NCBI GenBank assembly: GCA_013151415.1
Contig: JAADII010000196.1
Coordinates: forward strand, 1,969-65,968
Length of the DNA stretch: 64,000 nucleotides
Direction: 5' to 3'
DNA from: Chloroflexota bacterium
Lineage (GTDB): Bacteria; Chloroflexota; Anaerolineae; J102
The position numbers were made by a program, and so were the translations under genes. Shown one piece after another: positions 42,303 to 52,678 of the stretch (positions within the stretch are counted from its first letter, which is position 1; every line of letters starts with the position of its first letter). The notes under the pieces were generated by a model. It did no database searches. It saw nothing but the letters and a program-made list of their open reading frames with translations, and was not told where the DNA came from.

Positions 42303-44759
42303 TCAGAAGCCGTAAATGCGACGATAATGATCGGCCTGGACCGCGATGGCGCGGAGATAGGTCTGGGTTTCGTTGAAGCGGATCACTTCCAGGAAGAGAT
42401 CGTCATCCTCGCCCGCGAGCCTGCGCCAATGGGCCGCGTTGCCTGGGCCGCCGTTGTATCCGGCCAGCGCGTCGCCCACCTTGCCCTGGCTGCGTTGCAA
42501 GCCCTGGGCCAGATAAAACGCGCCGAACTCGACGCTGACATGAGGGCGATAGAGCCAGTCGTCGCGATAGTCCGACCAACCCAGTTGTTGGGCGATGCTG
42601 CGCCCCGTGGGCGGGATGACCTGGGCCAGGCCGCGCGCGGCCGCGACGCTGGTGGCCGTATGACCAAAGAGGGATTCCTGGCGGATGAGCGCGAAGAGCA
42701 GGGTTGGATCAAGATCATATCGCCGCGCGGCGTCGAAGATCAAATCCTGGAAATAAAGTGGATAGATCAGTTGTTGTAGTTGGAGCGGGGTTTCGGCCAG
42801 CGGCGTTTTGGAAAGGACGCGCACGCGCGCCGCGGCGCGGATGGATGTGTCGAAATAGCCCAGGTCGCGGGCGAAAAAGGCCAGTTGCAGCAAGCGAACG
42901 GGGTCGTCTTGCCATTGATAACGCAGCGATTCGAGAATGGCGCGCGCCGCGGCCCCTTCGCCGATGGCGTCGAACGCGGCCGCGCGCTCGAATTCGGGAT
43001 GCGATGCCAATACGCGCTCTTTCGTCACCTCCTGGCCTGTCCATTGGCTCAGCCAGGGGAGCAGTTCGGGCAAATTGGATGCGAGTTTGGGCGTGGGCTG
43101 GCCGATTTGCTGCGCCGCGCGCAGGCCATAGTAGTTGGTTCGCCCCCAACGAGCGGCCACACTTTGCCAGTGCGCCTGGGCCCCGGCCTCGTCTCCCTCG
43201 GCCAGCATGGCCTTGCCCAACCAGTAATCCGAAGCCGCCTGCCACAGCCCCCGCCCGCGGCCCGCCACATCCGACCAGGTTTCTCGCGCCCGCGCGTGAT
43301 CGCCCAAACGATAGTGAGCCAGCCCGGCCCGGAATCCCGCCCGCAGCCCGAATTTGCTCTCGGGATAGGTCTTGAATAGCCGCTCATAGACCTGCGCGGC
43401 CTCGGCCATGTCTTCTTGTTCGCGCTCGGCCAGCCACGCGGCCCACCATAATGCTTCGGCCGCGCGGGTTGCATCCACGCCCGCGTCGGCCGCCTGCAAA
43501 TAGACCTCGCTCGCGGCCTCGATATTGCCCAGTCTCCACAGGCTGCGACCCCGACCCAGCCAGGCCTCGCCCGCGCGAGCGTCGCCGGGATGCGTTTCGA
43601 TAAGCGAGCGCCATTCGGCCTCGGCCGCAGCGTAGTTGCCCAACCCCTCGTAGGCGCGCGCGACCAATGCATGACCCTCGCCATCGTGTTCGGGGTTGGC
43701 GTCCATGTAGCGATAAAGCGCGTCGATGGCCGGAAGATAGGCCCCCGCGGCCACGTCGATGCGACCGCGCAGCAGATCATCCACCGGCCGGCCCGCATCG
43801 ACCAGCGCCACCAGGGCCAGATACGCGTACCGGCTTTCGGGCGCGGTCGTGGTCGCGCGGCCGTAGTTTTGCATGGCCGCTTCGGTCTGGCCTGCGGCCA
43901 TTTGCGCCTCGGCCAAACGATAATAGATTTCGGCGCGATAGGCCGCGTTGCGCGCCTGTTGCAAGATGCGTTCATATTGCTCGATGGCCGCGGCGGGATC
44001 GCCCATGTCTATGGCGGCTTCGGCCATGCGTTCGCGCAGGCGCAGTTGCGGGGTCAGGCCAGGGGCGAGTTCAAGCCCGCGACCATATTCGGCCAGGGCC
44101 TGTTCGGGCGCTCGCGTCAGCGCGTAGAGATCGCCCGCGCGTTCATAGGCCAGGTAGGCCAGCGTGGGGACGCGTTGGGCGTAGGCGTGGTAAGCATCGA
44201 CCGCGTCCTGGCTTTGGCCCAGCGCGGCATGTGCGCGCGCCAGCCAGAAGAGCATCTCTGGTTTTTGCGCCACATAGGCTTCGCGTTCGCTCGCGGCCAG
44301 CAAAGGCTCCAGCGCGGCCGCGGGTTGGTCGTCTAGCAAAAGCGCTTTGCCCAGACCAAACAACGCATCGAGATGCATCGGTTCGCGTGCGAGGATGCTG
44401 CGATAGGCGTCGGCCGCGGCCGCGTAGTCGCCGTTGCGCAGCAGGCGCTCGGCTTCGGCCAGTTCGTTGGCCAGGGTGGGCGTGGGCGTTGAGGTGGGCG
44501 TGTGGGTGGGTGTATGGGTTGGCGTGTGTGACGGCGTGGAAGTTGGCGTATGAGTTTGGGTGAGAGTGGGCGCGCGCGTTGGGGTGGAGGAGGGCGTGGC
44601 GTGGAGGGAGGGCGTGGAGGTCGAGGGGGATGTGGTTGCTTCTGCGATTACGGCCCTGGTTTTGGTGGGCGCGGGCGTGGGCGAAGGAGGGGGCGCGGGC
44701 GTGCCAGCGCATGCCGCGACCAGGAACAGGATGGTGAGCGAGCCGAAAAGAAAACGCAT
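42303..44759 (-). CDS. Soluble lytic transglycosylase (Slt-like) lipoprotein with TPR superhelix
   Basis: Lipobox VAAC, Thr/Pro linker, TPR repeats, ALIRQESLF (catalytic Glu), GLAQV, AGYNGGPGN, ETQTY. Confidence 0.88.
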   Translation of the reverse strand: MRFLFGSLTILFLVAACAGTPAPPPSPTPAPTKTRAVIAEATTSPSTSTPSLHATPSSTPTRAPTLTQTHTPTSTPSHTPTHTPTHTPTSTPTPTLANELAEAERLLRNGDYAAAADAYRSILAREPMHLDALFGLGKALLLDDQPAAALEPLLAASEREAYVAQKPEMLFWLARAHAALGQSQDAVDAYHAYAQRVPTLAYLAYERAGDLYALTRAPEQALAEYGRGLELAPGLTPQLRLRERMAEAAIDMGDPAAAIEQYERILQQARNAAYRAEIYYRLAEAQMAAGQTEAAMQNYGRATTTAPESRYAYLALVALVDAGRPVDDLLRGRIDVAAGAYLPAIDALYRYMDANPEHDGEGHALVARAYEGLGNYAAAEAEWRSLIETHPGDARAGEAWLGRGRSLWRLGNIEAASEVYLQAADAGVDATRAAEALWWAAWLAEREQEDMAEAAQVYERLFKTYPESKFGLRAGFRAGLAHYRLGDHARARETWSDVAGRGRGLWQAASDYWLGKAMLAEGDEAGAQAHWQSVAARWGRTNYYGLRAAQQIGQPTPKLASNLPELLPWLSQWTGQEVTKERVLASHPEFERAAAFDAIGEGAAARAILESLRYQWQDDPVRLLQLAFFARDLGYFDTSIRAAARVRVLSKTPLAETPLQLQQLIYPLYFQDLIFDAARRYDLDPTLLFALIRQESLFGHTATSVAAARGLAQVIPPTGRSIAQQLGWSDYRDDWLYRPHVSVEFGAFYLAQGLQRSQGKVGDALAGYNGGPGNAAHWRRLAGEDDDLFLEVIRFNETQTYLRAIAVQADHYRRIYGF

Positions 44760-45016
44760 GGATGGGTGTCGGATGGCGGGGGACAAGTTGTTTGTCAGTA
44801 GTTGTTTGGAGAGTGGCGGTTGTTTGCCGTCCCCGACCATACCAGAGATATGAAGTTTCCCGCAAACGTAGATCATCTGCCAGGCCTGGAAGTCATTACG
44901 CCGGATGAATTTGTCGCGGCGCGCTGAATGGGATGTAACCTTTTGGGGTTTATGTCGTCAAAGAAGTAGATCAGTCGGTCTTTTTTCTTGATCATCGCTT
45001 CATAAGGAGGCGCATT

Positions 45017-45415: not shown

Positions 45416-46264
45416 TTATTTGATTGCGCCCGCGGTCAGGCCGCTGATCATCTGGCGTTGGAGCAAGAAAAAGATGACGAGCACGGGGATGGTGCTCACC
45501 ACCGCGGCCGCGGACATGAGATCGAACCGATTCGTATATTGGCCCACGAAGAGCCGAATGCCCACGGGAATGGTGTTGACATTGAGCACCCAGGCGAAGA
45601 GCAGCTCGTCCCACGCGGCCAGGAACACGTAGATGGCCGTGGCCACAATGCCGGGTCGGGCCAGGGGGAGGGCGATGCGCCAAAACGCGCCAAAGGGCGT
45701 GGCTCCGTCGATGAGCGCGGCCTCTTCGAGATCGCGGGGGATGGTGGCGAAGAAGCTGCGCAGAATCCATAGGGAGAGGGGCAAGAAGAACGCGGTGTAC
45801 AGCACAATCGCGCCAAAGTTGGTGCCCACCAGGGGTATGCCCAGCCGTTTCTTGATCAATATGAAGTTGCCGTAAAGAGGCAAGAGAAAGAGGATGCCCG
45901 GAATGAGTTGCGTGCCCAACACCGCCAGGCCGAATGCATCCGCGCCGGGAAAACGAAATCGGGCCAGCGCGTAACCGCTGAGCGTGGCCAGAAAGCTGAC
46001 GATGAGGGTGGTGACGCCGCAGACGATGAGGCTGTTGCGAAAGTAGAGACCGAAATCCACCTGCGCCCACAGGTCTTGATAGTTGTGGAATTGGGGCTTT
46101 TCCGGGAAAAGCGCGGCCGCGGTTAGAATCTCCTGGTTCGTGCGCAATGAGTTGACGATCATCCAAAAGATGGGAAAGAGCACGAGCAGGATGATGGCGA
46201 TGAGCAGGAGATCGGCCAGACGATCCAATGCGAACCGACGATAGCGATAGTAAGTGGCGCTCAT
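45416..46264 (-). CDS. Carbohydrate ABC transporter permease (MalG-like)
   Basis: FPIFWMIVNSL, GYALARFRFPG, EAA loop LEEAALIDGA, FLAAWDEL. Confidence 0.92.
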   Translation of the reverse strand: MSATYYRYRRFALDRLADLLLIAIILLVLFPIFWMIVNSLRTNQEILTAAALFPEKPQFHNYQDLWAQVDFGLYFRNSLIVCGVTTLIVSFLATLSGYALARFRFPGADAFGLAVLGTQLIPGILFLLPLYGNFILIKKRLGIPLVGTNFGAIVLYTAFFLPLSLWILRSFFATIPRDLEEAALIDGATPFGAFWRIALPLARPGIVATAIYVFLAAWDELLFAWVLNVNTIPVGIRLFVGQYTNRFDLMSAAAVVSTIPVLVIFFLLQRQMISGLTAGAIK

Positions 46265-46267
46265 GGG

Positions 46268-47239
46268 CTATTCCTGGGTGAGTGAGCTGCGGAAGGTGCG
46301 ATACCAAAGAAAGACGAAGAACATCATGCCGAACATCATCAGCGTGGACGCGGCCGCGCCCAGGCCAAACAACCAGTAGCGGAAGGATTGACGCTCCAGC
46401 GCGGGCATGAGCAGGTCGCCCCATTCGCCCGGATACCCGCCGCCGTTGCCGAACATCATCACCACGATGTTGTAGCCGAAAAAGGTGAAGATCATGCCCC
46501 ACAACAGCATGATGGCCACCACAGGTTTGATCCAGGGCAAGGTGATGTGGCGGAATCGTTGCCATAAAGACGCGCCATCCACGACCGCGGCGTCATACAG
46601 GTCTTCCGGCACGGTTTGCAGGGCCGAAAGGAGCATGATGGTGGCGAAAGGAAGCTGTCGCCAGATGGTGGGGATGATGATGGCCCAAAGGGTGTTGGGG
46701 CCGATGAGCCAGAAAGGTCTCTGGTCCATGAGATGCAGCCAGTCCACCAGGATGATGTTGATGACGCCTCGTTCGCGTAGCCACATCATGCCCCACAACA
46801 AACCCACCGCGTAGGTTGGCACGACCCAGGGCATGAGAATGAGGGTGCGCGCCAGCCCTCGCCACCAAAATCGACGGTTGAGCAACAAAGCCGTCACCAT
46901 GCCCAGCCCCAAGGTCGCGGCATTCACCACCACACTATAGATAATTGTGTTGCGCGTGGCCTGTCCCAACCCGCGCACAATGGGGTTGTCGGGCGTGAGG
47001 AGGAGAAAACGATAGTTGGCCAGGCCGATGAAAGGCGCTCTCAGAAATTGTCCCAGGGTGTATTGGTTCAAATCCAGCATGGACATGTAGAGCGCCTCGA
47101 CCGTGGGAACGAGATGCACCAAAAGCATGGCGAACAGGGTCGGCGCTATCATGAGATAGGCCAGGCGGTGGCGCGCTGCACGCTCGCGCCATGCCTGCAA
47201 ACGGGTTTTAGGAGGTGAGATGGGTGTGACGATTTCCAT
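46268..47239 (-). CDS. Carbohydrate ABC transporter permease (MalF-like)
   Basis: FIGLANY, LILMPWVVP, WRQLPF, LYDAAVVDGAS.WQRF.HITLP. Confidence 0.92.
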   Translation of the reverse strand: MEIVTPISPPKTRLQAWRERAARHRLAYLMIAPTLFAMLLVHLVPTVEALYMSMLDLNQYTLGQFLRAPFIGLANYRFLLLTPDNPIVRGLGQATRNTIIYSVVVNAATLGLGMVTALLLNRRFWWRGLARTLILMPWVVPTYAVGLLWGMMWLRERGVINIILVDWLHLMDQRPFWLIGPNTLWAIIIPTIWRQLPFATIMLLSALQTVPEDLYDAAVVDGASLWQRFRHITLPWIKPVVAIMLLWGMIFTFFGYNIVVMMFGNGGGYPGEWGDLLMPALERQSFRYWLFGLGAAASTLMMFGMMFFVFLWYRTFRSSLTQE

Positions 47240-47375: not shown

Positions 47376-49856
47376 TTATTGATAGACGCCCTCATAAGGA
47401 ACCGGCGCGCTGGTCGCGATTCCCCAATAAGGATTGTATCCCAGCTCGGCGAAGATAAACCAGGACGTTGCGCCGATATGAAGACGGTTGTAATAGTTCC
47501 AAGGCCCGCCGGTGGGTAGATCGAAGCCGGTGCTCAGGCCATCCTGACTCGCGGCCACAATGCCGTAGCCGTCGGCATGAGGGGCCAGGGTTTGCGCTCG
47601 ACGCACCTCGGCCAGAAACTCGTCGGCTTCGTAATTTTGTCCCACCACTTGCAGCGCGGTCACCATCTGCGAGGTCCCTTCGAACCAGACGCCATCTTGG
47701 TCATCGTTGAAGTCGAACCCCCGGAAGGCCATGCCATTGGTGTTGTCTCGCGTTTGGTGGTGCACGCGCGAGTAGGTGAGCGAACGACCGTACTTATCTG
47801 CTTCGCCCATGCTCAACACGCCCCAAGTATTGACATCGAGAGGAAACGCATCTTGGTTGATGGTGACGCCGTCGGGTGCGGTTCCGGTGTAGAAATAGCC
47901 GTCCTGATCGTTCCACATTGCGGCGACAAAATTCTTGGCGTGCATCGCGCGCGTGCGCCACGTCGAGTCGCCGGTGAGTTCGTAGAGCTTCATGAACGCC
48001 ACATAGACATCGATGTTGTGCTCTGTGGATTTGTATGTCAACACCTCTTGATGAGGCTCCCAGCCCGCCACGCCGCCGGTGTAACCGCCGGGTCCGGTGA
48101 CGCTGTATGTGTTGTCAACGATCCATTGGGCCATGGAGGATGCAGCGTCGAGATACTTCTGGCCGCCGTACGTCTCGTAATAACGCAACAACGCCAGGAT
48201 GGTCCAGGCTGCGTTGCCTGTGGTCGTGCCGTTGCCATACTTGTCGTAATTATGTCGCGCCACGCCTGTGTTGGTGCTGAGTTCGCGCGCGTAATAGGTG
48301 TTGCGAATGCGCCCGTCATTGGCTTCATCGCGCTCTTGGGCGAAAATCAGGCTATCGGCCAGGAGCTGCGCCCGCCCTGCATCGGATGGATCGCCGCCGG
48401 CGAGAAAGGCCAGAAGGACAAGCGCGTTGTCATAAGTGTGCGCTACGTCCATCATAAACGAATCGGGATCGAACGGGGGCGGCAGGAAGTCTTCTTGCAA
48501 AGCCGGATCAGTGGACGCGTTGATAAAGCGGATGTCGTCGAGATAGAACGTGGCGCCGTTGGGATTGTTCGCCTTCGTTGCGGTCCAGGCGAAACCGCCG
48601 ATCACCTGAGAAAGATCATGGTTCGATAGATCGATGATATATTCTTGCCAGGCATTGCTCAGCGTGACCACGCCGGTGGACGCCGCGGGTTGAATCGAAT
48701 CGGGATAAGGTCCTTGAATCCCGCCAACGAGAAACTCGATCTTTTCCCCGCCGACCGCGCCTTTGGCCCAGAAAGAGAGGCGATCCGCGCCATCCAGATC
48801 AAAGCCGCCGGTGCGGTCGCCCCAGTTATAGGCGGGCGATTGCCAATAAACGCCGGCCCACTGTTGCCCCTGACTGGCATTGGCCGAATAATCGATGCGA
48901 ATGGCCGAATCGCCGCTGCGAGGCGCGGACGCGTCGTACGCGTCGAAGCTGATGTCGCCATAATCGCCCATCCAGCCCGTATCGTGATAAATATTGTAGA
49001 TGGAGGCGCCGTCTTTATAAACATAAGCATATCGATAGGCGTCCATGGGCCGCGGCGGCGTCCAATTGGCGTCCACCGTATAACTCTCCAAAAGTCGCAA
49101 CTTATTCGTGTAGTGTTCGAAGCGAATGTCGTCGAGATAGATGGTGGCGCCATTGGGGTTTTGGTTTTGATTGGTCACCCAGACGAAACCTCCGATCACA
49201 TAGCTCAGATCCTTTCCCGTCAGGTCGATGGTGTATTGTTGCCAATTCGATGATAGCGTGATCACGCCGGTGGTCACCTCGGGTTGAATCGAATCGGGAT
49301 AAGGGCCGCCGATCCCTCCCACCTTGAATTCCGCTTTTTCACCGCCCTGCGCGCCTCTGGCCCAAAAAGTGACCGATGTCGCGCCGGTCAAATCGAATCC
49401 GGCATTGGGGATATTGCCCCAGTTGTTGGCGGGTTCTTGCCAATAGATGCCGGCCCATCCCTGACTTCCGGCGGCCGCGTAATCGATACGGATCGCGGTC
49501 GCTCCGGTGTGTGGATTCGTGACATCATCATCGCTGAATGTGATATCGCCGACATCGCCCATCCAGCCGGAGGGCGTGAAGTGATTGCCTATGGCATATT
49601 GCTCACTGTATATGTCGAAAGTGAGATAGCGATCCATAACCTGGCGGAGATGGGTGAGCGCATTGTTTGCGTGCGAGTTCGAAAGGGCTTGGGTGTTGGT
49701 GGTTGCCGACGCTCCTCCATACTCGACCGGAAGCGCTCGCACGCGGTGATTCGAGAGACCGAAGAGCAGAATCAGGACCGCAACCAGGCCAATGGATAGA
49801 AAGAAGAGACGGTTTGTATATTGTGGGTGCATGTTCAAGGTCTCCAGGCATGTCAT
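47376..49856 (-). CDS. Secreted protein with two tandem CBM-like (GWMGD) domains and a C-terminal putative (alpha/alpha)-barrel glycosidase-like domain; start may be 49832
   Basis: Signal peptide; two ~165-aa repeats (GWMGD.GDI.F ... WAG.YWQ.P..NWG ... GPYPDSIQP ... NPNGAT.YLDDIRF); helical C-domain with YDNAL, KSTEHNID, WFEGT. Confidence 0.7.
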   Translation of the reverse strand: MTCLETLNMHPQYTNRLFFLSIGLVAVLILLFGLSNHRVRALPVEYGGASATTNTQALSNSHANNALTHLRQVMDRYLTFDIYSEQYAIGNHFTPSGWMGDVGDITFSDDDVTNPHTGATAIRIDYAAAGSQGWAGIYWQEPANNWGNIPNAGFDLTGATSVTFWARGAQGGEKAEFKVGGIGGPYPDSIQPEVTTGVITLSSNWQQYTIDLTGKDLSYVIGGFVWVTNQNQNPNGATIYLDDIRFEHYTNKLRLLESYTVDANWTPPRPMDAYRYAYVYKDGASIYNIYHDTGWMGDYGDISFDAYDASAPRSGDSAIRIDYSANASQGQQWAGVYWQSPAYNWGDRTGGFDLDGADRLSFWAKGAVGGEKIEFLVGGIQGPYPDSIQPAASTGVVTLSNAWQEYIIDLSNHDLSQVIGGFAWTATKANNPNGATFYLDDIRFINASTDPALQEDFLPPPFDPDSFMMDVAHTYDNALVLLAFLAGGDPSDAGRAQLLADSLIFAQERDEANDGRIRNTYYARELSTNTGVARHNYDKYGNGTTTGNAAWTILALLRYYETYGGQKYLDAASSMAQWIVDNTYSVTGPGGYTGGVAGWEPHQEVLTYKSTEHNIDVYVAFMKLYELTGDSTWRTRAMHAKNFVAAMWNDQDGYFYTGTAPDGVTINQDAFPLDVNTWGVLSMGEADKYGRSLTYSRVHHQTRDNTNGMAFRGFDFNDDQDGVWFEGTSQMVTALQVVGQNYEADEFLAEVRRAQTLAPHADGYGIVAASQDGLSTGFDLPTGGPWNYYNRLHIGATSWFIFAELGYNPYWGIATSAPVPYEGVYQ

Positions 49857-49885
49857 TCGGGGATGGGAGCGCTCCCATCCCCGAA
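49856..49885. promoter_or_regulatory. Perfect 30-bp palindrome with a central CelR/CebR-type operator
   Basis: TTCGGGGATGGGAGC|GCTCCCATCCCCGAA; core TGGGAGCGCTCCCA at 49864-49877. Confidence 0.85.
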
Positions 49886-49894
49886 CAAAAAAAG

Positions 49895-51379
49895 CTATTG
49901 CGAAGCGTAGGAGGCCGTGGCCAAAAGTGCATTCACCTCTTCCGCGGCCTGGTTCAGTCGCTCCGGAATCATGGTCTCGGGATCGAAGGGGCCGTTCACG
50001 CCCGCGACGTCATCCCACAGCGCGCCCAGGTGCTTCACCATGGCCGATTCGATGGGGCCCCAGGCCGCAATGGCCGGGTAGGATTTTCCGTTGGCCACAG
50101 CTTGCACGAAAACGCCATATCGGGGATCATCACTAAAGACCGGGTCGGCCAGGGCCTCTTTGTTGGCCGGAATCATGCCGATGTTGGCGCTGTAGCGCAC
50201 CTGGGACTCCCGGGAAGCCAGGTATTGCACGAACATGACGGCTTCCTTGGGATATTTGCTGCTTTGCCATACGGTGAGATTGGAGCCTCCCACAAAGGTG
50301 AAGCGCCCCGCCGGCCCGGCCGGGATTTCATGCACGGCCAGATTGTTGGCCGCATCGGTTCCCGCAAAACCGCCCTGATCCGAGGGCGTCTCCGAGTTCT
50401 TCACCAGCCAGGGGCCAGAGATGACCATGGCCACCTTGCCCTCGCCATAAAGCCCGTCCACCTGCGCGCTGTTCAGCTCCAATGCATCGGAGGGGGTGTA
50501 GCCTTTGGTGTAAAGGCTGGTGTAGAATTGCACGCCCTCGATGGCCTCGGGGCTGTTGAACGCGGCCGCGGTGTTGCCGGGGTTGAGCATGTCGCCGCCC
50601 GCTTCCCACACCCAGGGCGCGAAGTTGTGCAACACGTTCCAATCGTTTTTACCGGGAAAGGCGATGGGCGCCAGGTCGGGGTTCTTTTCCTTGAGAGTGG
50701 CCAAAGCCTGATCGAAGCTTTCCCAGGTGGCGAAGGCCTCGTCGGGATTCAGCCCCGCCTGCTCCAGCGCGTCGGCCCGATAGACGATGGCGCGGGTGTC
50801 CACGAACCAGGGTAGGGCCGTGGTGAAGCCGCTGCCGATGGGGTTGGCGGTCTGCCAGGACGCGTCCACGAACGCGTCGCCCCCGCCGACCGCGGCGATC
50901 TCATCGGCCGTGAAGGGCCGCAGCGCGCCCATGGCGCTGATGGCCGCGACCCAAGTCGTGCCCAGTTGCGAGATGTCGGGGCCTTCGCCGCTGGTGGCCG
51001 CGGTGGTGATCTTGGACCAGGCCGCGCCCCAATCGATGACCTCAACCTCCACGGTGATGTTGGGGTGCAAGGCGTTGAACGCGTCGGCCTCCTGCTGCAT
51101 GATCTCCAATGGTTGGGGGCCGTTGGGCATGATCCACATTTTCAGGGTCACCGGCTCGGCCGGCGCGGGCGTTGGCGTGACCACCACCTCTTTTTCCACC
51201 ACTTTGGTCACCTCGACTTGCTTCTCCACCACCTTGGTGACCTCTTTTTCCACGATTTTGGTCACCTCGACGGTCTGCACCTCGGGCGTGGGGGCCGGCG
51301 CGGCGCACGCCGCGAGGAAGATCAACAAACTCACACCAATGAGAGCGGCGAAAACGCCGCGATGTCTGCGAAACATCAT
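49895..51379 (-). CDS. Sugar ABC transporter substrate-binding lipoprotein (family 1)
   Basis: Lipobox LAAC, VEVTKVVEK repeats, GPDISQLGTTW, LPWFVDTRA, FVGGSNL; SD AGGAGGAG. Confidence 0.9.
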   Translation of the reverse strand: MMFRRHRGVFAALIGVSLLIFLAACAAPAPTPEVQTVEVTKIVEKEVTKVVEKQVEVTKVVEKEVVVTPTPAPAEPVTLKMWIMPNGPQPLEIMQQEADAFNALHPNITVEVEVIDWGAAWSKITTAATSGEGPDISQLGTTWVAAISAMGALRPFTADEIAAVGGGDAFVDASWQTANPIGSGFTTALPWFVDTRAIVYRADALEQAGLNPDEAFATWESFDQALATLKEKNPDLAPIAFPGKNDWNVLHNFAPWVWEAGGDMLNPGNTAAAFNSPEAIEGVQFYTSLYTKGYTPSDALELNSAQVDGLYGEGKVAMVISGPWLVKNSETPSDQGGFAGTDAANNLAVHEIPAGPAGRFTFVGGSNLTVWQSSKYPKEAVMFVQYLASRESQVRYSANIGMIPANKEALADPVFSDDPRYGVFVQAVANGKSYPAIAAWGPIESAMVKHLGALWDDVAGVNGPFDPETMIPERLNQAAEEVNALLATASYASQ

Positions 51380-51480
51380 GTCTCCTCCTTGTTGGAGAGG
51401 AAAGGCGGAACATCGTTCAAAGGGATGTCGTTCTTTGAAACCAAAGGCTTTCTCCACATTTCACGACATAGGCGACCTCC

Positions 51481-52503
51481 TTACATGACAGAGCCGCATG
51501 AGGCTCGGATGACCAGCTCGGTGGGCAGGATCGCTCGCAATGGCGCTTGCGTTCGTCCTTCCAGAATGCGGAAGAGCAGCTCCGCGGCCGTGCGCCCTAG
51601 TTTGTAGATGGGTTGGCGCACGGTGGTGAGGGGCGGCGTGCTGTAGGCCGCGACCTGGGCGTCGTCGAAGCCGACTACCGCAATATCGGCCGGCACGCGC
51701 AGCTCGGCTTCGTAGATCGCGCGCAGCGCGCCGATGGCCATCAGATCATTGGCCGCAAACACCGCGTCCGGCTTTTGTTGCAACAACTGCTGCATGGCCA
51801 GATAGCCGCCCGCTTCGGTGAAATCCCCCTCGGCTATCAGTGTTTCGTCCACCACATGGCCGTTGCGGCGCAGCGCGGCCTTCCACCCCTCGAGACGATC
51901 CACGCCCGCCACCATGTTCATGGGCCCGGTGATGGTGGCGATGCGACGCCGTCCCAGCCGCATGAGGTGCTCCACGGCCATCAACGCGCCGTGCAGATTG
52001 TCCACATCCACGTAATTCACTTCGGGGATGGTGGGATGACGGCCAATGACCACAAATGGGATGTCGTCGCGATGAAGCCGCGGGATCAGCGCGTCGTCGA
52101 GAAACGCGGAGATGATGACCACGCCCTCCAGCATCTGGCTGCGCAGAGAGCGGCGATAAAAATCATCTTCCTGATGAGGCGGCACCATGGCCAGGAACAT
52201 ATGATATTGCTGCTCGTTGGCCGCGTCCGCGATGCCGTGAAGCACGCGCGAGAAATAGGGGTCGGAGAAAACCGTGTTCACGGCCTGGGGGATGACGATG
52301 CCCAGAGTCTTGGTGCGACGGCCGGCCAGGCTGCGGGCCGCGGCGTGGGGATGATAGCCCATCTCTTTCACGACGCGCCATACGCGCTCGCGCACCGCAT
52401 CGCTGACATTGGGTTCATCGTTGATGACGCGCGAGACGGTGGAGCGCGACACGCCGGCCGCTTTGGCGATTTGTTCGAGGGTGGGGGTGTTGGATGGGGT
52501 CAT
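51481..52503 (-). CDS. LacI-family transcriptional regulator (CelR-like)
   Basis: PTLEQIAKAAGVSRSTVSRVIN...GYHPHAAARSL, VDVDN, EGDFT, FAANDLMA, VVGFDD, PLTTVRQP. Confidence 0.93.
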   Translation of the reverse strand: MTPSNTPTLEQIAKAAGVSRSTVSRVINDEPNVSDAVRERVWRVVKEMGYHPHAAARSLAGRRTKTLGIVIPQAVNTVFSDPYFSRVLHGIADAANEQQYHMFLAMVPPHQEDDFYRRSLRSQMLEGVVIISAFLDDALIPRLHRDDIPFVVIGRHPTIPEVNYVDVDNLHGALMAVEHLMRLGRRRIATITGPMNMVAGVDRLEGWKAALRRNGHVVDETLIAEGDFTEAGGYLAMQQLLQQKPDAVFAANDLMAIGALRAIYEAELRVPADIAVVGFDDAQVAAYSTPPLTTVRQPIYKLGRTAAELLFRILEGRTQAPLRAILPTELVIRASCGSVM

Positions 52504-52517
52504 GATCGCTCCTTGTG

Positions 52518-52531
52518 TGAGAGCGCTCTCA
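52518..52531. promoter_or_regulatory. LacI-type operator variant directly upstream of the regulator's start
   Basis: Perfect 14-bp palindrome TGAGAGCGCTCTCA. Confidence 0.8.
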
Positions 52532-52635: not shown

Positions 52636-52678
52636 CTGGGAGCGCTCCCAGTATAGCACGCGAAAAAGCCCCTGTCAA
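52636..52678 (-). promoter_or_regulatory. Sigma70 promoter with overlapping CelR/CebR-type operator
   Basis: Minus strand TTGACA (52678-52673), 17 nt, TATACT (52655-52650), overlapping by 1 nt the palindrome CTGGGAGCGCTCCCAG (52636-52651), which covers the expected start site. Confidence 0.88.

Follow-up and report, generated by a model that had tools for sequence, protein, structure and literature searches.

The window analysed here is a 64,000-nt stretch of a Chloroflexota bacterium genome (GenBank assembly GCA_013151415.1, contig JAADII010000196.1, positions 1,969 to 65,968 of the forward strand). It contains five co-directional genes which encode, in order, a LacI-family repressor, a solute-binding protein (SBP) of an ATP-binding cassette (ABC) transporter, a predicted exported protein and two ABC permeases (Table 1). 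The third of these genes, between the SBP and the permeases, is the subject of this work. A reading of the sequence alone (the sequence-only reading) had placed it there, directly behind an operator, as a candidate carbohydrate-active enzyme, and both the gene order and an operator at 49864-49877 agree. The protein combines two N-terminal repeats resembling carbohydrate-binding modules (CBMs) with a C-terminal (α/α)6 barrel, which we call the X domain. On balance, we favour the view that it is a secreted or surface β-glucan depolymerase that feeds the importer and represents candidate new glycoside hydrolase (GH) and CBM families, as judged against Pfam, NCBIfam and the Protein Data Bank (PDB).

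Table 1. Features of the operon and of the protein encoded by its third gene (HMM, hidden Markov model; AF2, AlphaFold2; pLDDT, predicted local distance difference test)
Feature	Position	Strand	Remarks
Open reading frame of the target gene	47376..49856	-	826 aa counted from first ATG
(α/α)6 X domain, residues 453-820	47397..48500	-	Purpose-built HMM; AF2 pLDDT 91.5; Foldseek; 344-domain conservation
CBM-like repeat 1, residues 95-249	49110..49574	-	Purpose-built HMM match 3.3e-73
CBM-like repeat 2, residues 292-449, β-jelly-roll	48510..48983	-	Purpose-built HMM; AF2 pLDDT 93.6
N-terminal leader, residues 9-41	49734..49832	-	Arg, 18 hydrophobic residues, then VRA/LP; read from sequence
LacI-family repressor gene	51481..52503	-	LacI domains present
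SBP lipoprotein gene (SBP_bac_1)	49895..51457	-	Homologue of T. thermophilus β-glucoside-binding protein and C. thermocellum CbpB
ABC permease 1 (BPD_transp_1)	46268..47239	-	
ABC permease 2 (BPD_transp_1)	45416..46264	-	
30-bp perfect palindrome centred on operator	49856..49885	.	Between SBP stop and target gene
Promoter-like site TTGACA-17-TATACT	52637..52678	-	11/12 match, TG-extended
GC-rich strong stem-loop directly after target stop codon	47328..47368	-	Without T tail

The X domain was modelled with AF2 from residues 445-826 and an alignment of 58 sequences, giving a pLDDT of 91.5 and a predicted template modelling (TM) score of 0.91. DSSP assigned 11 long helices in hairpin order, where a full six-hairpin barrel has twelve, and the overall fold is that of a six-hairpin, or (α/α)6, barrel. 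A Foldseek search of the PDB (to April 2026) gave 346 hits with E≤1e-3, almost all of the best 50 being (α/α)6 carbohydrate proteins; the neighbours among the matches listed were glucose and cellobiose 2-epimerases, GH76, GH94 phosphorylases, GH47 and cyclic glucan synthase. The model and its carbohydrate-enzyme neighbours thus bear out the (α/α)6 barrel that had been proposed before any structure was predicted. Since the best matches (E 3e-9 to 1e-7) reach a TM score of 0.55-0.62 at 10-16% identity, the likeness of the modelled domain to solved structures is at superfamily level, below family level.

We then compared 344 barrel domains for conservation. The residues Y475, D476, D510, D514, R516, R518, Y521, N548, W551, E612, H613, N614, D616, D674, D715, D721, E726, H793 and W799 are 93-99.7% conserved; D476, D510, R518, E612, H613, D616, D674, E726 and H793, together with several Trp and Tyr residues, reach at least 96%. 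Each motif picked out in the sequence-only reading (YDNAL, KSTEHNID, PLDVNTW and DGVWFEGT) is found in the protein, with acidic residues that are conserved to 98-99% among the 344 domains. In their family-wide form, YDN, GNxxW, KSTEHNxD, PLDxxxW, DFNxDxDGVWFEGT and RLHxGATxW mark the beginnings of helices 1, 3, 5, 7, 9 and 11 or the residues immediately ahead of them, and DGRxRNxY falls in the loop after helix 2; in the model, most of the conserved residues map to the N-termini of alternate (inner) helices or immediately before them. This is the part of the barrel in which six-hairpin enzymes assemble their active sites. The gathering of near-invariant polar residues at these inner-helix ends speaks for a catalytic rather than a binding function of the X domain. 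An Asp/Asn-rich conserved loop at 47671-47712 (residues 715-728, DFNDDQDGVWFEGT) resembles a DxDxDG-type calcium-binding loop; if it binds calcium, E726 might be a metal ligand instead of a catalytic residue.

The sequence-only reading could assign the catalytic domain to no named GH family, and sequence and profile searches of Pfam, NCBIfam and the PDB likewise gave nothing convincing. With the target protein, NCBIfam returned noise only, including a LanC/LanM-like match that scored 11.8 bits where the cut-off is 304, which we rejected, and a PDB sequence search returned nothing meaningful. The sole Pfam match was a marginal one to GH127 (PF07944), whose 25.3 bits barely exceed the cut-off of 24.9, and it spans profile positions 130-201 of 376 (72 positions), or about one helical hairpin. 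GH127 enzymes are β-L-arabinofuranosidases in which Cys acts as the nucleophile and Cys and Glu residues form a Cys-rich zinc site. As residues 453-826 hold no cysteine, GH127 chemistry is ruled out. GH81, which has a β-sandwich and an (α/α)6 barrel in an endo-β-1,3-glucanase, gave no Pfam match and no structure among the best 50 fold matches. In the PDB, a profile built from 58 homologues had no matches beyond cellobiose 2-epimerases (E 3.7e-5) and one GH76. The AGE superfamily and GH76 are therefore both the best fold matches and the only profile matches, and they share with the X domain the (α/α)6 barrel and motifs at inner-helix starts; they differ in being only 10-16% identical to it, in the exported and modular nature of the window protein and, for AGE, in the residues at its His positions (see below). 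An adjacent DD catalytic pair of the GH76 type was not identified in the X domain. Literature searches found no paper describing the X family.

The two N-terminal domains had been described as highly similar, and this was confirmed by the HMM boundaries and by 55% identity across 190 residues (E 5e-72). The repeat module carries the motifs GWMGD, WAGxYWQ, FWA+G, GGF and YLDDIR. The AF2 model of repeat 2 is a β-jelly-roll, the type-B CBM fold that CBM30 and CBM11 also have. Its nearest Foldseek neighbours are CBM30, CBM11, CBM8, CBM29 and CBM4 (TM about 0.6, 13-16% identity), and the best structures are 1wmx (CBM30) and 6r3m (CBM11) with TM scores of 0.58-0.66 and identities of 14-16%. The earlier label of 'CBM/galactose-binding-like' therefore holds for the CBM-like jelly-roll, and its galactose-binding part is only loosely right. 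Neither Pfam CBM30 (PF21582) nor CBM11 (PF03425) matched the window protein (P0001), even at E≤1; some homologues gave weak, partial matches to one or the other at or just around the cut-off. CBM30 and CBM11, known from C. thermocellum CelJ and Lic26A-Cel5E, are type-B β-glucan binders appended to glucan-active enzymes, as the window repeat is to a putative one. In contrast to them, the repeat has its own motifs, shares only 13-16% identity and is partnered mainly by GH17 and the X domain. It is likely that the repeat module is a separate CBM family.

Beyond the X family, it is GH17 proteins that dominate the best matches to the repeat tandem: about 61 of the best 120 carry GH17 (PF00332). These GH17 proteins hold three or four copies of the repeat, and one protein (P0045) fuses repeats, X barrel and GH17 in a single chain. 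GH17 is a β-1,3-glucan family that includes transglycosylases. GH17-plus-repeat proteins were seen at L122 (1702-7099), L123 (4583-9851) and L124 (3437-6661), with Thr/Pro linkers in P0032 (L122) and P0036 (L124); in L122 and L123 a smaller gene upstream of the GH17 gene also holds one copy of the repeat. In three contigs, X genes were not found near GH17-plus-repeat genes, and a search of the window's own genome for GH17 gave no match, with control genomes equally silent.

The SBP indicates what the importer may carry. It matches the β-glucoside-binding protein of T. thermophilus (βGlyBP) at E 1e-117 and CbpB of C. thermocellum at E 3e-93. According to PMC9601137, cellodextrins G2-G5 are ligands of CbpB, cellotetraose is a ligand of the Thermus protein and both proteins also bind laminaribiose; the gene clusters of both are without an ATPase gene. 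The present operon also encodes neither an ABC ATPase nor a β-glucosidase, as the sequence-only reading had stated; the 4.5-Mb genome has one GH1 β-glucosidase match and one GH3 match, both on contigs other than that of the operon. The SBP homology, the sharing of the repeat with GH17 and cyanobacterial clusters described below point to a β-glucan substrate, and β-1,3, β-1,4 and mixed linkage would all be compatible with the present data. At the N-terminus of the SBP (about residues 50-105), a lipobox-like LAAC is followed by a repetitive Val/Glu/Lys/Thr stretch (VEVTKIVEKEVTKVVEKQVEVTKVVEKEVVV) with Pro/Thr/Ala-rich flanks, an arrangement suggestive of a long spacer that connects the lipid anchor to the binding domain. 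Immediately downstream of the operon, positions 42303-44876 encode a lipoprotein-like protein of 857 aa that ends in an SLT lytic transglycosylase domain and also has many TPR repeats and a long linker rich in Thr, Pro and Ser.

The exact 14-bp sequence TGGGAGCGCTCCCA that forms the operator in front of the target gene lies in the 38-nt gap after the SBP stop codon. A second exact copy at 52637-52650 abuts or overlaps the -10 hexamer of the promoter-like site of the operon, and a copy with two mismatches is found at 52518-52531. These two exact copies are the only ones in the genome; the sole copy elsewhere with one mismatch is inside a RACo-like gene, probably by chance. We take the box to be the CebR/CelR-type operator through which actinobacteria regulate the breakdown of cellulose and cellobiose, and the operon has the composition of such a regulon, namely a LacI repressor and TGGGAGCGCTCCCA at its promoter. 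Because the -10 hexamer touches an exact operator, the arrangement fits direct repression of the whole operon, the LacI gene included.

The internal operator also bears on where translation begins. The first ATG of the open reading frame falls within the 3' arm of the operator palindrome, which as RNA folds at -28.3 kcal/mol (z about -4) and has no T tail. The codon of Met9, an ATG at 49832, has GGAG 9 nt upstream, and the orthologue P0003 begins at the equivalent residue. For these three reasons, Met9 is probably the true start. The signal peptide of the sequence-only reading stands as regards a hydrophobic leader of 18 residues, whose equivalent is present in all of the orthologues P0002-P0008; this leader could be either a signal peptide cleaved at VRA/LP or an uncleaved membrane anchor. 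At the other end of the gene, a 91-nt stretch around the stem-loop that follows the stop codon folds at -38.9 kcal/mol (z about -4). The two stem-loops that bracket the gene may be elements of mRNA stability or processing that uncouple the levels of SBP, enzyme and permeases.

The X domain belongs to a large family. Used alone as a query, it has matches in 1745 representative clusters (50% identity level) at E≤1e-3, of which 567 remain at E≤1e-30, and a scan of one genome per species gave at least 530 confirmed loci in bacteria and archaea. The bacteria include Chloroflexota, Planctomycetota, Verrucomicrobiota, Cyanobacteria, Firmicutes, Desulfobacterota, Nitrospirota and Actinomycetota, the last with cultured Catenulispora, Actinospica, Streptomyces and Kitasatospora; the archaea include Methanosarcinales, Methanoregula, Bathyarchaeia, Promethearchaeota and Heimdallarchaeota. 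Members from archaeal metagenome-assembled genomes (MAGs) of Asgard archaea such as Promethearchaeota and Heimdallarchaeota, of Bathyarchaeia and of methanogens (L013, L061, L015, L017, L035, L059) are 40-46% identical to the window's X domain, which suggests that the gene has moved widely between domains of life. One repeat with a barrel is the commonest architecture among 373 homologues collected (215), followed by the barrel alone (78) and several repeats with a barrel (about 54); the X domain is also joined to the display modules dockerin, SLH and T9SS. Nearly all members are named 'hypothetical protein'. The closest named loci to the window's gene are in Chloroflexota and Ardenticatenaceae MAGs, and the target sequence itself was found in DNA metagenome runs only.

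Close relatives of the gene sit in similar surroundings. An orthologue of 87% identity lies in an identical LacI-SBP-X-permease-permease operon, and orthologues of 65% and 63% identity lie in SBP-permease-permease-GH3-X clusters, where the GH3 is nearest to the models of BglX and exo-β-1,3/1,6-glucosidase, under their cut-offs. Catenulispora and Actinospica (L067, L074, L082) have, in place of a LacI/ABC operon, a GntR/UTRA (HutC-type) regulator gene transcribed divergently from the homologue, and no transporter was found at these loci.

A different arrangement occurs in cyanobacteria. All six loci with enough flanking sequence (L016, L032, L042, L049, L056, L079) have an HlyD-like gene, a cellulose-synthase-like glycosyltransferase family 2 (GT2) gene and then a standalone X gene; the GT2 has a PilZ domain in L042, and a TPR protein and a major facilitator superfamily transporter follow the cluster in L049. 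GH8, the family of the endoglucanase BcsZ, is an (α/α)6 barrel too, although no GH8 is among the top fold or sequence matches of X. In Xcs clusters the corresponding third position holds an endoglucanase (PMC12430437), so that the standalone cyanobacterial X takes the same cluster place as the XcsC endoglucanase, and the HlyD/GT2/X cluster may be an undescribed variant of Xcs-type β-glucan secretion clusters. We considered whether X is itself the cyanobacterial XcsC, which is improbable: of 13 cyanobacterial genomes with XcsA-like GT2 genes, 11 have no X homologue, and in one small genome the region beside the GT2 gene showed only glutamine synthetase. Since most cyanobacteria with XcsA-like genes are without the X family, X has probably taken the place of XcsC in these clusters, and the canonical XcsC probably belongs to a different family.

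On the reading of the protein as a β-glucan depolymerase, it would be exported or anchored at the cell surface, where the two tandem CBM30/CBM11-like modules would hold a β-glucan chain, most likely β-1,3 or mixed-linkage and possibly β-1,4. We infer that the C-terminal barrel would hydrolyse the chain to short oligosaccharides using two carboxylates at the inner-helix N-terminal ends, for which D476, E612, D616, D674 and E726 are the candidates. The CebE/CbpB-like lipoprotein SBP and the two permeases would import the products, powered by a shared ATPase encoded elsewhere, and a cytoplasmic GH1, also encoded elsewhere, would cleave them. The LacI/CebR-type repressor would control the unit through the two perfect TGGGAGCGCTCCCA operators and be relieved at both by the imported disaccharide; the operator palindrome and the hairpin after the stop codon may set expression of the target gene apart from that of the SBP.

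Several observations weigh against this scheme. The nearest relative by sequence profile is an epimerase and not a hydrolase, and an acidic substrate or some other chemistry would likewise be in keeping with the Arg and His residues that are conserved. No neighbourhood is conserved family-wide: in a set of 36 loci with 141 neighbours, every Pfam family occurs three times at most, and some members adjoin kinases, cell-division genes, or GH88/KduI uronate genes. The family is also patchy, having been found in none of 27 other genomes of the same taxonomic family and in one of 33 other families of the class.

The protein might be active on carbohydrates but differ in its substrate or chemistry, acting on an acidic or heteropolymeric exopolysaccharide, by a reaction like that of the unsaturated-uronyl hydrolases, or as a lyase. 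The near-invariant R516, R518, H613 and H793 could bind carboxylates, P0108 lies beside GH88, DUF4861, KduI and a short-chain dehydrogenase, and GH88/GH105 and several polysaccharide lyase families have the (α/α)6 fold. We think this unlikely: neutral β-glucans are favoured by the SBP, by the neighbouring GH3 genes, by the module shared with GH17 and by the likeness of its fold to CBM11 and CBM30, and GH88 and polysaccharide lyase structures are not among the best 50 fold matches of X. It is quite unlikely that the enzyme instead trims or remodels the cell's own exopolysaccharide, as an endoglucanase resembling BcsZ or XcsC or as a transglycosylase, with the importer merely recycling the products. 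The transglycosylases within GH17, the usual partner of the repeat, would suit such a role, P0120 adjoins GT4 and cell-division genes, and the third position of standalone X in the cyanobacterial HlyD/GT2(PilZ) clusters is that of the endoglucanase in Xcs clusters (PMC12430437). The window gene and its three closest orthologues, however, lie in a repressor-controlled uptake operon or beside GH3, no GT2 synthase is near the target gene in the window, and the type of operator presumably speaks for catabolism, as in actinobacteria.

A purely binding role, in which a non-catalytic surface protein tethers glycans and hands chains or oligosaccharides to the SBP, would agree with a position directly after the SBP gene, with an N-terminus that may be a membrane anchor and with catalytic residues that are candidates only. 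We regard it as improbable: the protein already has two dedicated binding modules, the X domain occurs both alone and with many display modules (dockerin, SLH, T9SS), and its buried carboxylates, His and Arg are 96-99% conserved across phyla and archaea, as is typical of active sites. The AGE superfamily offers a sugar epimerase or isomerase, and NCBI indeed names the cyanobacterial P0258 'AGE family epimerase/isomerase'. Cellobiose 2-epimerases are the best PDB profile matches and, with glucose 2-epimerases, the top Foldseek matches, the latter at a TM score of just 0.6 and 12-15% identity. On the protein itself, the Pfam AGE model (PF07221) scored 13.4 bits against a cut-off of 23.4. In the AGE profile alignment, which is weak (about 25 bits), the position of H247 (H247F in 8wbu) pairs with Leu673 and the His of NTHLHV pairs with Asp616; we take both His residues to be catalytic in AGE enzymes. 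A third AGE His position could correspond to H793, which lies outside the alignment. Because two His positions differ in this weak alignment and the protein is exported with CBMs, where known AGE enzymes are cytoplasmic, we rejected an AGE epimerase as a very remote prospect, and the NCBI name is disfavoured.

The β-glucan depolymerase reading places the operon close to known uptake systems. As in Streptomyces cebR-cebEFG-bglC and the Thermobifida CelR regulon, a LacI repressor accompanies the exact 14-bp operator; as in the βGlyBP and CbpB transporters, a closely homologous SBP goes with two permeases and no ATPase gene, with the GH1 here encoded elsewhere. The present operon differs from all of these in the gene for an exported enzyme inserted between SBP and permeases, with a second operator in front, and from the ceb and CelR systems in its host, a Chloroflexota-type genome. 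The novelty lies in candidate new GH and CBM families, both within known folds.

We put forward more tentatively a wider proposal: that X founds a new GH family and the repeat a new CBM family, both specific for β-1,3/mixed (or β-1,4) glucan; that horizontal gene transfer has spread them across most bacterial phyla, methanogens, Bathyarchaeia and Asgard; and that they serve β-glucan foraging in Chloroflexota uptake operons and provide the processing glucanase that some cyanobacterial HlyD/GT2 clusters of β-glucan synthesis otherwise lack. The X family is large and widespread and is without a Pfam or NCBIfam model or a solved structure; existing annotations call its members hypothetical proteins or, wrongly, epimerases. 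The operon is an unusually clean experimental handle on it, bringing together the enzyme, the binding protein that goes with it, the repressor and both perfect operators, and the GH17-associated module would be a new tool for recognising β-glucan. If the X domain is a β-glucanase, many metagenome inventories of carbon cycling would be missing a widespread turnover of β-glucans such as laminarin, curdlan, mixed-linkage glucan and cellulose.

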